From the IMG/VR virus record IMGVR_UViG_3300030390_001877, positions 1 to 64,000 of that record: a stretch of 64,000 bases of DNA; one strand, written 5' to 3'. Source of the DNA: a virus. The notes below the pieces were generated by a model. That model worked only from the letters and a program-made list of their open reading frames with translations, ran no database searches and was not told the origin of the DNA. The translations under genes were made by a program, and so were the position numbers. Below are positions 5,296 through 37,096 of this stretch, piece by piece (position 1 is the first letter of the stretch; each line of letters begins with the position of its first letter).

Positions 5296-6960
5296 CAAAC
5301 TATTTCTAATAACACCCTACTTCTTAGAAGCTGATTTCTAACTTTACTCTTAAAATATCTTTATATTGAAAGACTAAACCAATGTGATTAGAAATACCAA
5401 ATCAAGACGACTTTGCTAACGTGAGTTGTCTTGTCAGACGGACAACGTCCAGAAGAGGATACCTTTTAGAAGAGTATAAATAACCATAGTAATCTTTACT
5501 TAAACAACCCTACTCTAGAGAGTGCTAAATATAAGGGTATTAGAAACTAGATAGAAGAAGTTAGAGAAATCCTTCTATTATATTTCTATCTTATAAAATA
5601 TCCCCCTCTCCAAAAGGATAACATTTACAACCTTGTTGTAGAAATATCAATAGGTTATAGAATATAACAAAATATCATAGGGAGATAGAAATATCCTAGA
5701 AACATATCTATTTTATAGAAGCCTATTTTATAGAAAGTAAATATCTGAAAATAAAATTTTCTGGGAGGTGTTATTTTGGGAAGAGTGTTATCTATTTGGG
5801 GATGAAAATATCTGGGAGAGGGTTCCTTTAGAGAAAGGTGTATTGTTTGAGTAAGGTATTGTTGATAAAGGTGTTTTCTTATTAAGGAAGAAATTTTAGT
5901 GAGAGGTGTTAAGCACTGTTATAGTATAACATATCACTAACTTTTAAATATTAAAATATCTACCAATATCAAGCACTTTCTTAGAATAAATCCCCCAAGC
6001 ATATAACATTCTAGTATATGTTACCTTATCACAAAGAGTCTCCTTCTGTAACTACGTTACAATATAACATCTCTATTCAAAAGGGTTGCATATACAAATA
6101 AGATACATTCTCAATTATATTGAACATAACATAGTTTATAGGATGTCATCTATAAGAGGTTATTACTCTGTGAATACATATTCACAAATAGAATACTTAT
6201 GCAAAGAGGGTATTCCTTCTTATAGAAAGTCATTTGTTGATAATAGTTATCATATGAGAACAGTTATTGTTTATGAAAGGGTGTTATATTATCACGTACG
6301 TGATAGAAGTGTTATGTTATAGCATAGCTATAGAAAGTGTTATGTTATAACGTTCCGTTATGAGATAGGTTTTTCCTATTAAATGTTCCATTTAGAAAGT
6401 TATTACCTTTTATAGTAAGTGTTTGTGTTCTTAGTGTGTTTAACAACCCACATAAGAAGCACCTCCACTCACAAAGGATATACCTCCCCAAAATTACCCT
6501 TCCTAAATAGAGTACTTTTGTTACTACGTAACAGAATAATCACCCTTTGTAACGTAGTTACACAAGACACCTCTTTATACTTCGTATAGCCTATCACAGC
6601 TGCATTTCATGCAAACATAACAATCTATTAAAGCTACACTCTCATAAGCTCCTTACACTAGCTTATAGGTAGCTAATTTTTTATAAATAAACACCTCCTA
6701 AAAGCAGATAACACTACCTAAAAATGTTACATTATCACACTAATCCTATGTTAGTAAGAATAATACTTCTGTGACGTTGTCACAAAGAGGGTTAACTATT
6801 TGAAAACATTATATTTCTTTACTCTGTAAAGGGGGTTTACACTTAGTAAAGTAGTCTATTTGGTCAGCGTGATTTATCCAAGGGTAACACTGCGTTTAGG
6901 ATAATGTTATATTGTAACGTTGTTACAAAGAAGGGTAGGTTTAAGAGGGGTTTTACAGGT
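5296..6960. repeat. long non-coding region with TAGAAA-type repeats and TGTNAC-N3-GTNACA palindromes (origin or genome-end candidate)
   Basis: no credible ORF for about 1.7 kb; direct repeat CTATTTTATAGAA at 5708 and 5723; palindromes at 6047, 6519, 6548, 6770, 6913. Confidence 0.6.
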
Positions 6961-6964
6961 GAAG

Positions 6965-6988
6965 AAAAACCCCAGTTAAGGGGCTTTT
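6965..6988 (-). terminator. terminator closing the early region
   Basis: minus strand AAAAGCCCC-TTAACT-GGGGTTTTT. Confidence 0.8.
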
Positions 6989-7014
6989 ATAGGTTTGGTG
7001 GTAATAATTCCTAT

Positions 7015-7224
7015 TTAAAGTGTCGCTCTATAGTAATTAGGATCATTAGGAAAAGGATATACACGGAGATCATGCCCTTTGTATTTTATCCATAATTGCT
7101 GGTCTATTTTCCAGATTGTTCGTTCAACTGTTGTGAACACCTCACCCTTGCGGATGCTTTTATTTGATAGTTGTTTGACTTCCCGCACTTCCACATACCC
7201 TTTACCTAAGTTTACTTTGTTCAT
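7015..7224 (-). CDS. hypothetical early protein
   Basis: flanked by RBS linker repeats. Confidence 0.75.
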   Translation of the reverse strand: MNKVNLGKGYVEVREVKQLSNKSIRKGEVFTTVERTIWKIDQQLWIKYKGHDLRVYPFPNDPNYYRATL

Positions 7225-7239
7225 GGGAATAATTCCTAT

Positions 7240-7437
7240 TTAACATGTCCAACTATTACAAAAGTAATTATACTCTTTTTCTGTACCATCTGAATAAATA
7301 ACATATATAACACTATAATCAGATCCATAACTCCAGCCTTTGAACTGAGGATGTTCCCCAAAATCATCAGGGTGTGGGAGTTCACTAGGTACGTTAAAAC
7401 TTGTTTCATTATACCAATCATTTATATTTATGTTCAT
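7240..7437 (-). CDS. hypothetical early protein
   Basis: flanked by RBS linker repeats. Confidence 0.75.
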   Translation of the reverse strand: MNININDWYNETSFNVPSELPHPDDFGEHPQFKGWSYGSDYSVIYVIYSDGTEKEYNYFCNSWTC

Positions 7438-33492: not shown

Positions 33493-33508
33493 AAATGAAT
33501 CTCACACA

Positions 33509-33600
33509 ATAATAACACCATTCTTAAAACAGTCAACCTTTAAATAAGATTATTTCTATGAAAAGTTTTATTTGACAAGGGAGGATTCTTTGTGTAGGAT
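33509..33600. promoter_or_regulatory. divergent promoter pair at the strand switch
   Basis: minus TTGACT-16-TATTAT (33509-33536); plus TTGACA-17-TAGGAT (33572-33600). Confidence 0.75.
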
Positions 33601-33629
33601 TGTTGGAAATTGATTAGAGGAGATACATT

Positions 33630-33794
33630 ATGGTAGAGTTTATTATTTGGTACGTGATGGGTTTGGTGGGCTGTTTGTTAACCGATTACGTAGAGTGTAA
33701 GATTGTGAATAGGGATTATGAAAAATATAAATACGATTCTAAAACAACTATAACTTATTTAGGAGGTGTACGCCCCCTGCTTACCTTGTATTAG
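33630..33794 (+). CDS. small membrane protein (54 aa, not in track)
   Basis: GAGGAG RBS; MVEFIIWYVMGLVGCLL. Confidence 0.6.
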   Translation: MVEFIIWYVMGLVGCLLTDYVECKIVNRDYEKYKYDSKTTITYLGGVRPLLTLY

Positions 33795-33879
33795 TATTTT
33801 CTGTATTCGGAATAATAACTTTTGCAATCGGGTTGAATAGTATGTACAATTATTTGAAAGGTAACTATGGGGAATTTGA

Positions 33880-34122
33880 ATGAACAAAGCACTTTTAATA
33901 GAACAAATAGCCCTTCAAGCGGGAATCTCTGTTGAAGAAGCAAACTTTGCTTTAGAAAAGTTTGAAGAAGCAATGAAATCTTTTGACGAAGGGAGATCTT
34001 CTTATGAACTATTAGTGGATAGTCTTTCAGAATACACTACACCAAAAGATGATCTACTTTACCAAGAGCCTTTGTGGGTGAGAGATCAACAGAATAAAAC
34101 TTTTAAGAGAGGTAAACAATAA
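33880..34122 (+). CDS. hypothetical protein (HU-like first helix only)
   Basis: MNKALLIEQIALQAGIS..EA resembles HU helix 1; the rest does not. Confidence 0.6.
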   Translation: MNKALLIEQIALQAGISVEEANFALEKFEEAMKSFDEGRSSYELLVDSLSEYTTPKDDLLYQEPLWVRDQQNKTFKRGKQ

Positions 34123-34466
34123 TGACAGATTCAACTTTTACAGAAAACACACTTGAACGAATTGCATCTTTGGAAGAAGAGAACCGTCTCTTAAGGAAAG
34201 CCCTCTCTTTGGAAGAGTCTTATTGTTCTCGTGCAGAACAAGAAAACTACGAGATATGGAAACTTTCCCATACAATGGGATTCTATAAAGAATTAGTGTC
34301 TGTTTTGGAGAAGGGTAGCAGTGAGAAAGATGTGAACCTTTTTATAGAGTATATGGGATCTGAGGGGTATGTAGGAGAGGATGAATACGATAAGGAAGGT
34401 CGTCGTAGCTTAGAGGAACACAAAGAGCGTCAAGAGGCTTACAATTCGTTTGAGGAGGACATGTGA
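34122..34466 (+). CDS. hypothetical protein
   Basis: coupled. Confidence 0.7.
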   Translation: MTDSTFTENTLERIASLEEENRLLRKALSLEESYCSRAEQENYEIWKLSHTMGFYKELVSVLEKGSSEKDVNLFIEYMGSEGYVGEDEYDKEGRRSLEEHKERQEAYNSFEEDM

Positions 34467-34484
34467 TGGAAGAGTATACTGAGG

Positions 34485-35893
34485 AAAGTTTCAACTTGAC
34501 ATACCCAAAGTTTAAAATATTTTATAAAGTGTTACAAAACCAGCAACAGATGGAACATTTACATTTGTTTTCTGTGAAAACATGTTATATGTTAAAGAAG
34601 GATTTACTTAACCTAAAAGGAGGTTGTTATGTTTTTAGCCCATAAGGTCGAACTGAGGCCTTCTAAAGAACAACAAGAAAAATTACTACAATGGATTGGA
34701 ACAACCCGACATTGTTTTAATAATTTACTAAGTAACTTTTCTAAAGAAGGTGTTAAGTTTTCTAAGAAAACTGCTAGGGAATACCTTTATAACACGTTAC
34801 GTGTTGATAATGAATGGTATTCTGACATAAGTCAGGAAATCTTACGAGAAACTATCAATGATTTAGAAAACGCTTACAAACGTTTCTTTAAGAAACTTGG
34901 AGGTTATCCAAGATTCAAGAAACGTGGAAGTAAAGCTTCTTTCTCTGTAAGAGACAAGGCTAAGTTTAAAGTAGAAGGTAGAAATCTTTACTTAGAAAAG
35001 TTTAATAAAGGTAAAGAGGGTAAGCCTTTAAAGTTACGTGAGAAACTTCGTTTCGAAGGGACTCCTAAGCAGGTCACCATTTCTTTCCAGAATGGAAAGT
35101 GGTGGGCTTCTATCTTAGTGGAAGGTTGCTCCAATTATAAAGGTAGTTTTCCGCAAAGCGGGGAAGCAGGGATTGATTTAGGTATTAAAGATTTAGCTAC
35201 ATTGTCTGATGGAACTACGTTCCAAAAGAGTAATAAGCTAACATTAAGTTTAAAGAAGTTATCTAAACTTCAAAGAGTATTTTCTAAGAAGAAGAAAGGT
35301 TCTAATCGTAGAGCGAAAGCCAAGCTTTCGATTAGTAAGCTTCATTTTAGAATAAAGAAACAACGTGAAGCATTGCTTCACAACGTAAGCCATACTATTA
35401 CATCTAAATATAAAACAATCTGCTTAGAAGATTTGTCTATCTCGTCTATGACGAAAGGTAAGAATAAGTCATTAAACAGAATGATTTTAGATGTAGGTAT
35501 GTATGAGTTGCGTAGGCAACTAGAGTATAAATCTTTTCTGAGAGGTGTTGACATCCACTTCGTGGATAGGTATTATCCTTCAAGTAAACTACATTATGAG
35601 TGTGGCTTTAAGAATGACAACCTTAAATTAGGAGAATCTAATTGGAAGTGTGGTAACTGTGGTCAACAAGTTGACCGAGATTTAAATGCTTCCAAGAATA
35701 TCCTAAAAGAAGGGGTGAAACACTTACGTGTTTAAAGTATAAATTGTGGACGTAGTTCACGAGAGGAGACAGGTACAAGCTTCTCTATAATCCCTACGGA
35801 GTAGGAAATGTAATCCTTAATTTATTAAGTTGTTTCTGTTAATTACGTAGATAACCTAACGAATGTTTCATTCGTTGCGGTTTTATGTATCGG
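34485..35893 (+). mobile_element. non-autonomous tnpB element, IS607-like ends (no tnpA)
   Basis: GGAAAG at both inferred junctions (34483-34488, 35892-35897); excision restores a short ORF ending at the next RBS. Confidence 0.55.
34629..35735 (+). CDS. tnpB: RNA-guided endonuclease TnpB
   Basis: OrfB HTH N-term, RuvC-I GIDLGIK, RuvC-II EDL, PSSK..ECG and CGNCG Zn finger, RuvC-III DRDLNA. Confidence 0.92.
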   Translation: MFLAHKVELRPSKEQQEKLLQWIGTTRHCFNNLLSNFSKEGVKFSKKTAREYLYNTLRVDNEWYSDISQEILRETINDLENAYKRFFKKLGGYPRFKKRGSKASFSVRDKAKFKVEGRNLYLEKFNKGKEGKPLKLREKLRFEGTPKQVTISFQNGKWWASILVEGCSNYKGSFPQSGEAGIDLGIKDLATLSDGTTFQKSNKLTLSLKKLSKLQRVFSKKKKGSNRRAKAKLSISKLHFRIKKQREALLHNVSHTITSKYKTICLEDLSISSMTKGKNKSLNRMILDVGMYELRRQLEYKSFLRGVDIHFVDRYYPSSKLHYECGFKNDNLKLGESNWKCGNCGQQVDRDLNASKNILKEGVKHLRV

Positions 35894-35913
35894 AAAGATT
35901 GATTTTATTAAGA
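35736..35913 (+). ncRNA. predicted omegaRNA scaffold plus guide
   Basis: 190-nt gap after tnpB with hairpins CCTAC-GGA-GTAGG and AACGAATG-TTT-CATTCGTT; inferred guide begins 35894. Confidence 0.55.
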
Positions 35914-35928
35914 TAAAGGAGGTTTGAG

Positions 35929-36537
35929 ATGAAGAGTTTTGAAGAAGATTTTTATACAGAGGATTATGATAAAGAGATGTTGGATTTTATCGAGGAGAAT
36001 TATTCTGTAGATAAGGTTAATGGTTGGGTTGTACAAGCCTCACTGATCCACCGTCACGGAGAGTTTTTCGTTTCAAGATACGATGGTAAAGATCGTGGTC
36101 TGGAACTCTTAACAAAAGAACAATTTAAGGAGAAGATTGGTATGACAGAAAATCTTACAAATAAGATTACTCCATCTGATGAGGGCGTGTTTACGAAAGA
36201 TATGCTTAAAGATGGTATGTTCGTTAAAATGAAGGGGAATATTTACATGGTGCTTGGGAAAGTATTATGTTCTTATGACCGTTATATTTTATTAGAAGAT
36301 TATGATGATGGTTTGAACGATAATGAAGAAGAAGTGTGGAATATCCAAGAAGTGTATATAGTAGAAGGAGAGGATAATATTGCGCCATTAAACTATTTCC
36401 TCAGCGGTAATGGTTTAAAATCTATCTGGAAACGTCCTCCAGAGAAAACCCTTGCACAAAAACACCTTGAGGAGAAGATTGCTATTACAAGAAAGCACCT
36501 TCTGGAATTAGAGAAACTTTTAGAGGAGAATTCTTAA
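35929..36537 (+). CDS. hypothetical protein
   Basis: AAGGAGG RBS. Confidence 0.8.
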   Translation: MKSFEEDFYTEDYDKEMLDFIEENYSVDKVNGWVVQASLIHRHGEFFVSRYDGKDRGLELLTKEQFKEKIGMTENLTNKITPSDEGVFTKDMLKDGMFVKMKGNIYMVLGKVLCSYDRYILLEDYDDGLNDNEEEVWNIQEVYIVEGEDNIAPLNYFLSGNGLKSIWKRPPEKTLAQKHLEEKIAITRKHLLELEKLLEENS

Positions 36538-36746
36538 TGACACACGCACACGTACAAAAATGTATTGAATCTGGAAAGATCGATTCTGCAACAAAATTAC
36601 ATGTTACCCAAGAATGTAGGCGTGTGATGGATACCTATGCTGATGAGATGAGAAGGCTTAAACTAGAGATGCTTGAGGTGGAACAGGGTATTTCTGATGC
36701 AAAGGAAACTTTAGAGAAGGTAGCTGATTTGGAGGTGGTGTTGTGA
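36537..36746 (+). CDS. hypothetical protein
   Basis: coupled. Confidence 0.7.
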   Translation: MTHAHVQKCIESGKIDSATKLHVTQECRRVMDTYADEMRRLKLEMLEVEQGISDAKETLEKVADLEVVL

Positions 36747-37096
36747 GTTTTGATTACGGATATACATGTTATTATATTGACAAAGATATAGACTCTTTCA
36801 AGGAAGCATCCTTCGAAACGTGTAAATGGTTTGTGGAAAGTATCTACTCTGATGAAGGGATTGATATTTCCAAGGAGGCTATTCTTGCGAAGAGTAAGGA
36901 GCTTTCTGGTGAGTTGTATTCTGACGCAGAAGATATCTTCGAGAACACACGTTCTCATAACGAGGATATGCGTGGGGCTGCTGACTCTCAGATAAGTGAT
37001 TTGAAAGGGGGTATAGAAGACTTGGAAGAGAGGTGTCATTTGTTGGAAGAGGAAGTGGCTGCTTTGGAGAAAGAACTTGAGAGGATGAGTGAATGA
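36743..37096 (+). CDS. hypothetical coiled-coil protein
   Basis: GGAGGTGG RBS, GTG start. Confidence 0.75.
   Translation: MSFDYGYTCYYIDKDIDSFKEASFETCKWFVESIYSDEGIDISKEAILAKSKELSGELYSDAEDIFENTRSHNEDMRGAADSQISDLKGGIEDLEERCHLLEEEVAALEKELERMSE

Follow-up and report, generated by a model that had tools for sequence, protein, structure and literature searches.

The window, a stretch of 64,000 nucleotides (nt), is the first 64 kb of IMGVR_UViG_3300030390_001877, a complete virus record of 132,129 bp in IMG/VR with direct terminal repeats at its ends. Alignment with relatives delimits within it an element of 1,360 nt, at positions 34532-35891, that carries only a tnpB gene and an omegaRNA scaffold and interrupts a small phage gene. 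Our preferred reading, to which we give a probability of about 0.6, is that this is a tnpA-less IS607-like TnpB/omegaRNA element with a two-step history, functioning as a homing nuclease. The locus is made up of the following features.

34466-34531, + strand: 5' fragment of the small gene, 22 codons (MEEYTEESFNLTYPKFKIFYKV), including the left GGAAAG at 34483-34488 (from alignment)
34530-34531, + strand: TG at the left junction, the presumed recombination core (found before the left end in all 8 relatives that have a complete one)
34532-34628, + strand: left end and 5' leader of the element, starting TTACAAAACCAGCAACAGATGGAACATTT (from alignment; the exact start lies within 34532-34538)
34629-35735, + strand: tnpB, encoding an RNA-guided endonuclease of 368 amino acids (aa) with an HxxC...CxxC zinc ribbon (Pfam, NCBIfam and structure alignment)
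35710-35891, + strand: omegaRNA (right-end RNA, reRNA) scaffold, ending ...GGUUUUAUGUAUC (conservation and consensus fold)
35892-35893, + strand: GG at the right junction, in the position of the core dinucleotide (native to the target gene)
35892-35913, + strand: predicted omegaRNA guide, (GG)AAAGATTGATTTTATTAAGA (the flank directly after the conserved scaffold)
35892-35927, + strand: 3' fragment of the small gene (GKIDFIKIKEV and the stop codon), with the ribosome-binding site of the next gene (from alignment)

Both junctions, and the loss of target sequence between them, were fixed by alignment with three relatives that lack TnpB, namely L030, L032 and L033, in which a gene of 69-74 aa (MKEYTEESFNLTYPKFKILYKV...GKIDFIKIEEI) stands intact between the flanking genes. 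The 5' fragment aligned base for base with the start of this gene in L032 and L033, its open frame continuing into the element up to a stop at 34645, and the 3' fragment aligned with the 3' end of the gene in all three relatives. The window therefore retains the first 22 codons of the small gene and its last 11 codons with the stop, and the 108 nt that separate these fragments in the intact alleles (123 nt as compared with L033) are missing, the element of 1,360 nt being found instead. The split gene is dispensable. A relative about 90% identical to the window, found in sequencing run X4, has the same rearranged allele, so that occupied and unoccupied alleles coexist among relatives that have diverged by about 10% (X4 is occupied, L030 is not). 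No joint that skipped the element was seen in the sequencing runs, which consist of contigs only and are silent on expression and on rare empty alleles; no RNA run with this sequence was among those listed.

The left end of the element aligned with those of L096, L101, L015, L105 and L099, and it lies only 97 nt from tnpB. A TG stands directly before the left end in all eight related copies that have a full left end, and every intact allele of the small gene has the TG found at 34530-34531 of the window as part of its own sequence. At the same point L030 and L031, both Logan contigs lacking TnpB at this locus, read AAAGTG-TTAC-AATG..., with a 4-nt frameshift insertion, TTAC, located exactly at the insertion point (L030:3883-3893); when TTAC was deleted, a full-length open reading frame (ORF) homologous to the L032 and L033 proteins was restored. 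We read TTAC as the footprint of a lost element, which would mean that the element first sat at AAAG-TG/AATG... (the slash marking the insertion point), with the middle of the gene still to its right. In the two-step history proposed here, a serine transposase supplied in trans would have inserted the element at this position, and a rearrangement beside the right end would later have removed the next 110 nt and put GG-AAAGATTG... against it. In the window, the right end (...TATGTATC, 35891) abuts the native GG followed by AAAGATTG..., and the guide that the omegaRNA now carries would have arisen from that rearrangement.

A single replacement event, in which illegitimate or double-strand-break-repair recombination exchanged 102-108 nt for the element with no transposase involved, would also account for the missing segment, although we consider it unlikely. 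In that case TTACAA would be native and the left end would fall at about 34538. The occurrence of TTACAA after AAAGTG in both the window and L030 agrees with such an event, as do the left end of L105, which begins AAAACAGCAAC directly after its TG, and the deletions or duplications at junctions elsewhere (11 nt in VpB-34, an 8-nt repeat in 355E48.1, a repeat of about 85 nt in L102). However, the TTAC of L030 breaks the reading frame and its removal restores it, all 8 relatives have a TG before the left end, a rule that the window follows only when TTAC is counted as element sequence, and the right junction is exact in all 15 copies, which argues for end-specific recombination.

The same alignments decide against the limits proposed in an earlier note on this DNA, in which the element spanned 34485-35893 with GG-AAAG at both ends, the target-adjacent motif (TAM) was TGAGG, and excision restored a 13-aa ORF in an empty allele reading ACTGAGGAAAGATTGATT. 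The hexamer GGAAAG does occur at both positions, 34483-34488 and 35892-35897, and the second marks a real junction; nevertheless, both copies are native codons of the small gene (E-E-S at the left, G-K at the right), and relatives without TnpB have both within a single intact gene, separated by about 170 nt. It is also frequent, with 51 copies in the window, seven of them on the + strand within 34195-36835, or one about every 380 nt. The stretch 34485-34531 is native in the relatives that lack TnpB, the actual left end being at 34532. Instead of TGAGG, the intact alleles have TTTGC-GG, TTTGT-GG or TTTGC-GA before the protospacer, and instead of a 13-aa ORF they carry the gene of 69-74 aa, including 108-123 nt that are absent from the window. 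An exact search of IMG/VR for the predicted empty site returned one unrelated, GC-rich chance match, and the predicted junction was not there in the relatives, an outcome that the note had itself named as refuting it. Thus, the intact alleles of L032, L033 and L030 refute its left end, TAM, 13-aa ORF and empty site, and we give its model as a whole hardly any credence, although its right junction and guide agree with the data. The correction matters in practice, since experiments built on a TAM or guide taken from one short repeat of one sequence would have aimed at the wrong target context.

The protein encoded by tnpB was matched above cut-off by three Pfam families, the OrfB_IS605 RuvC core (PF01385, 77 bits), the Cas12f1-like_TNB zinc ribbon (PF07282, 63 bits) and HTH_OrfB_IS605 (PF12323, 35 bits), and by the NCBIfam model guided_TnpB with 254 bits (cut-off 100). 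Among solved structures its best match was ISDra2 TnpB (E = 9e-47 over residues 6-362). The presence of all three RuvC acidic residues, already stated in the earlier note, was confirmed: D183, E267 and D351 align with D191, E278 and D361 of ISDra2 TnpB (PDB 8BF8) and are invariant in seven phage relatives. The gene is single-copy in the phage genome and is preceded by the Shine-Dalgarno sequence AAGGAGG at 34617-34623. No tnpA adjoins it in the ORF list at the locus, as had also been reported, and the genome as a whole is without a transposase. When the tnpB of the window was compared with nine relatives, the ratio of nonsynonymous to synonymous substitution rates (dN/dS) was 0.09-0.15, and the ten copies, the window's included, which lie at different sites and in different phages, are all open and all 368 aa long, indicating that the nuclease gene is under purifying selection. 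Relatives of TnpB were found by tblastn in 414 phage records, and transposase-less tnpB cassettes are therefore common in phages and this kind of element is already known. A scan of a genome collection yielded two contigs binned into a Flavobacteriaceae metagenome-assembled genome, with no transposase nearby.

The omegaRNA scaffold overlaps the final 26 nt of tnpB. Between the end of tnpB and 35891, over roughly 180 nt, conservation is well above the level of synonymous sites, and the consensus fold of an eight-sequence alignment contains 25 pairs, seven of them with compensatory changes; the RNA scaffold, like the nuclease, is under selection. An Rfam scan of 33500-37000 at E <= 1 gave no match, RAGATH-18 and the IS605-orfB motif included. 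As compared with 12 other copies, identity amounts to 80-98% in the final 120 nt of the scaffold and falls to 20-43% in the next 30 nt, the border of conservation falling at 35891 (...TTTTATGTATC), and the second copy, in run X4, diverges from the window exactly after this position. The dinucleotide that follows ...TATGTATC is NG in 15 of 15 copies, being TG in 12, GG in two (the window and L105) and CG in one (L015). Since conservation stops at 35891 and NG comes next in every copy, the guide is predicted to start at 35892 or 35894, with the GG at 35892-35893 either closing the scaffold or opening the guide. By the IS607 convention the scaffold includes the dinucleotide, and that of the Clostridium botulinum IStron ends ...UCGG (PMC10690162). 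The earlier right end holds to within 2 nt (35891-35893), given the conservation border in 12 copies and the point at which the X4 copy diverges, and the 20-nt guide proposed with it, AAAGATTGATTTTATTAAGA, is the one expected under the IS607 convention from a scaffold ending ...UCGG. A guide length of 16-20 nt was assumed from studied TnpBs, and within the genome of the phage the guide sequence occurs only once when up to three mismatches are allowed. We also observed that the last stem-loop of the scaffold (35857-35877), followed by GGTTTTAT, scores as intrinsic-terminator-like; as it lies only 14 nt before the guide, a guided RNA would need read-through.

A stand-alone scaffold, 92% identical to that of the window, was found in Shewanella sp. 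phage 1/4 (L001:3001-3181; KJ018209.1 41128-41308). It starts at the matching scaffold position, its tnpB has been lost except for the last seven codons, and its right end is exact (...TATGTATC/TGATATG). This copy may be a decay product, or its RNA may still act in trans, and its presence shows that the element has passed between phages whose hosts belong to different genera.

If the element behaves like the TnpBs studied so far, processing of its tnpB transcript would yield an omegaRNA with the flank (GG)AAAGATTGATTTTATT... as its 3' end, and TnpB together with this mRNA-derived RNA would form a nuclease that recognizes a TAM and about 16-20 nt matching (GG)AAAGATTGATTTTATT. The phage's own copy would be protected, as the guide sequence there follows the scaffold (GTATC-GG), and only intact alleles of the small gene would present the target behind another 5' sequence. 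In L032 the protospacer follows TTTGC-GG and matches the guide at 24 of 24 bases; in L033 it follows TTTGT-GG and has two mismatches; and in L030 it follows TTTGC-GA and has two mismatches, one of them at the dinucleotide, a G-to-A change that might confer resistance to the nuclease of the window. During a mixed infection the nuclease would cut genomes with an intact allele, provided that their context is an acceptable TAM. A genome so cut would either receive the element during repair templated on the genome that bears it, by non-restorative homing, or disappear. The perfect match between the guide and a natural intact allele, that of L032, makes homing into co-infecting relatives plausible. 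TnpB-driven homing into empty sites is established in bacteria (PMC10690162), and non-restorative homing of a transposon between co-infecting phages is theoretical only, having been shown so far in a plasmid population (PMC13565253). A protospacer search of IMG/VR with AAAGATTGATTTTATTAA gave 55 matches, none of them in the homologous gene.

Several observations weigh against homing with the present guide and against the history proposed for it. The sequence before the left ends (eight copies) or before the protospacers (two empty sites) is RN-TG, whereas the intact allele of the window's target has GC-GG; a purine at -4 is found in 10 of 11 sites, counting this intact allele. Since the dinucleotide before the protospacer is GG and not TG, and the ISFba1 TnpB tolerates no single change in its TAM (PMC11061315), the present guide may be unusable. 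In addition, the two-step history rests on one footprint. We also considered the purine at -4 as part of the TAM and set it aside as too weak to claim.

These observations bear on a further explanation, namely that the cassette is a stranded passenger, fixed at this site with no transposase, a rearranged flank and a guide without a usable TAM, so that no homing takes place and tnpB persists because of recent arrival or through another role, such as the cutting of other targets by means of another element's omegaRNA, or action as an addiction module. We regard this as a possibility to be kept in view, though clearly not the probable one. It fits a phage genome without a transposase, the context GC-GG before the present protospacer in place of the family's usual RN-TG, and a guide that is apparently secondary and derived from a deletion, and decay does occur in the family, where Shewanella phage 1/4 retains only the scaffold and L030 has lost the element. 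In contrast, a dN/dS of about 0.1 over ten intact copies at different sites and the highly conserved scaffold argue for continuing selection on the nuclease and on the RNA, other right dinucleotides that are not TG exist (GG in L105, CG in L015), and the relative of about 90% identity has the same rearranged allele.

With regard to family, the element looks IS607-like and non-autonomous, with a TG core, because of the dinucleotides at both junctions, the remnant of an IS607 transposase in a relative and the use of AGGAG in a sister subclade. In the IS607 family both junctions carry one core dinucleotide, as a rule GG, terminal inverted repeats are absent, and insertion neither duplicates nor removes target sequence. 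The dinucleotides of the window are TG at the left and GG at the right; a difference between the ends has been reported from experiments (PMC10690162). The earlier assignment to IS607-type elements with a GG core is thus upheld as regards a transposase-less element with an IS607-like TnpB and omegaRNA, but the usual core is TG. The transposase remnant was found in the element of Vibrio phage 1.187.O (56% identical), where an ORF of 66 aa encoding a MerR-type helix-turn-helix (L010:1338-1538) overlaps the start of tnpB; its best NCBIfam match is to positions 1-50 of transpos_IS607, and it is therefore a truncated tnpA.

The sister subclade is represented by Vibrio phages 1.193.O and 501E54-1, and the corresponding empty sites in close relatives read ...AGGAG/protospacer, as seen from the occupied and empty pairs L009/L011 (1.193.O and 1.187.O) and L002/L034 (501E54-1 and 424E50-1); the guide of 501E54-1 matches the empty site of phage 424E50-1 exactly, and the right ends of this subclade finish in the TAM-like AGGAG or AAGAG. 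Most IS607 TnpBs studied so far use AGGAG as their TAM (PMC11061315). Although the genes around the two empty sites are unrelated, the sites themselves are alike over about 35 nt. Three metagenome contigs (L104, L107 and L108) encode a TnpB 85-86% identical to that of the window but have left and right ends of the other subclade's type, so that ends and gene are mosaic between elements.

Other results speak against this assignment or against simple membership of IS607. NCBIfam scores are higher for IS200_TnpB (245 bits, cut-off 425) than for IS607_TnpB (166 bits, cut-off 350), both being below cut-off, and the scaffold gave no match to RAGATH-18 in the Rfam scan of 33500-37000 at E <= 1. A serine transposase able to mobilize the element was not found, there being no resolvase domain in the 132-kb genome, and the element itself has no tnpA. 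The junctions are not scarless either, as the window lacks 108 nt of its target, the copy of VpB-34 lacks 11 nt and that of 355E48.1 has an 8-nt repeat at the junction, the left end being truncated in both of these copies. The hallmarks of IS200/IS605, a Y1 (HUH) TnpA and insertion on the 3' side of a constant motif of 4-5 nt, were likewise not found, with no Y1_Tnp in the genome and only ...TG shared by the sequences before protospacers and left ends. A YTGAT that seemed an ISDra2-like TAM in L096, L015 and L097 was rejected, since in further copies only TG is constant and AT belongs to the left end, and an empty-site search with the guide of L015 found only occupied copies.

The losses and repeats at the junctions may be secondary events. 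In L102, a scaffold of the European Nucleotide Archive (ENA) with a TnpB 94% identical, the element stands between two copies of a flank segment of about 85 nt (40-125 and 1490-1575), which mirrors the 108-nt loss of the window. The repeats have a 61-nt core with about 5% divergence (95% identity) and are more diverged at their start, suggesting that they originate from two different genomes; no long flank repeats were found around copies other than L102. The right junction is exact in VpB-34, 355E48.1, L102 and the window, and in L102 and the window the left end follows TG. These patterns suggest, by inference only, that one end recombines with a pseudo-target close by, which may lie in the same genome or in that of a co-infecting phage.

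Compared with known systems, the element shares with the C. botulinum IStron (PMC10690162) and ISFba1 (PMC11061315) an RNA-guided TnpB with a right-end omegaRNA. With IS607 elements more generally it has in common the transposase remnant of its relative, a scaffold ending ...UCGG as in the C. botulinum IStron and, in the sister subclade, the published AGGAG TAM, and it may also have in common a dinucleotide shared at both junctions. It differs from them in having neither tnpA nor an intron, in a usual core of TG rather than GG, in a TnpB below the IS607_TnpB cut-off (166 against 350 bits) and in an RNA without a RAGATH-18 match; the sites seen for its own subclade have neither AGGAG nor TGGG as a TAM, and its host is a probably virulent phage, whereas theirs is a bacterial chromosome. 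ISDra2 TnpB (PDB 8BF8, 8EXA and 8H1J) is similar in size and domain order, with the catalytic D/E/D aligned. ISDra2 moves by its Y1 transposase and inserts after TTGAT (PMC8612924); in contrast, the genome of the window has no Y1 transposase and there is no sign of a TTGAT rule, the YTGAT beside three copies being better explained by the TG core and, behind it, a left end with AT as its first bases. Like the free-standing homing endonuclease genes of T4-like phages (SegF and SegB; PMC13565253), the element is a nuclease gene wedged into or between conserved genes and patchily present among relatives, and it would be expected to cut the allele without it in a mixed infection; the target would be read by an RNA guide and a TAM here and is read by the protein in SegF and SegB.

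The value of the locus lies in its natural occupied, intact and footprint alleles, by which the idea of homing between phages becomes directly testable. The occupied allele can be set against the intact allele of L032, which has a perfect protospacer, and against those of L033 and L030, which have mismatches or a changed base at the TAM position. TnpB genes are common in phages, and homing between co-infecting phages is only theoretical in the literature (PMC13565253). As a wider and, on present data, doubtful proposal, tnpA-less IS607-like cassettes may circulate in probably virulent marine phages of Pseudoalteromonas, Vibrio and Shewanella as RNA-guided homing or competition modules, their ends re-joining nearby dinucleotides and so re-programming the guide without transposition. 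If this were true, the re-joining of ends at nearby target dinucleotides, with outcomes from the duplication of about 85 nt to the deletion of 108 nt, would be the means of re-programming, and the near-precise loss with a 4-nt footprint, the G-to-A change of L030 and the stand-alone scaffold of Shewanella phage 1/4, as a decoy, might be counter-moves of relatives.

The element is flanked by two phage genes.

34122-34466, + strand: upstream flanking phage gene, 114 aa (ORF)
35929-36537, + strand: downstream flanking phage gene, 202 aa (ORF)

The only phage relatives of the proteins flanking the tnpB locus are those of Pseudoalteromonas phages HM1, H101 and J2-1. Domain searches across the complete 132,129-bp genome found no Y1 transposase, resolvase or tyrosine integrase, which is consistent with a virulent lifestyle without proving it, and the phage, a marine one of Pseudoalteromonas type, is probably virulent. 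Phage HM1 was considered as an empty site, as its two flanking genes lie 1 nt apart and it lacks the small gene altogether between them; it was set aside as too distant (34-55% aa identity). The closer relatives without TnpB were found by a search with the upstream 114-aa protein, homologues of which occupy the same place in L030/L031 (90% aa identity), L032 (83%) and L033 (80%). As a query, the downstream 202-aa gene yielded one locus of 32% identity each in IMG/VR and the JGI metagenomes and nothing closer. Homologues of this gene are present in Pseudoalteromonas phage HM1 (55% aa identity) and in L032, and it is absent from L030 and from the X4 relative of about 90% identity, so that it appears to be dispensable. 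In that relative, 9 nt (CATATTATC) stand in place of this gene (35932-36553 of the window). Near the locus, L030 has a weak GIY-YIG match at 1796-2458 and, at 6254-7345, a large protein with Hint/LAGLIDADG homing-endonuclease domains, so that other homing-type elements are present in the same region of the genome.

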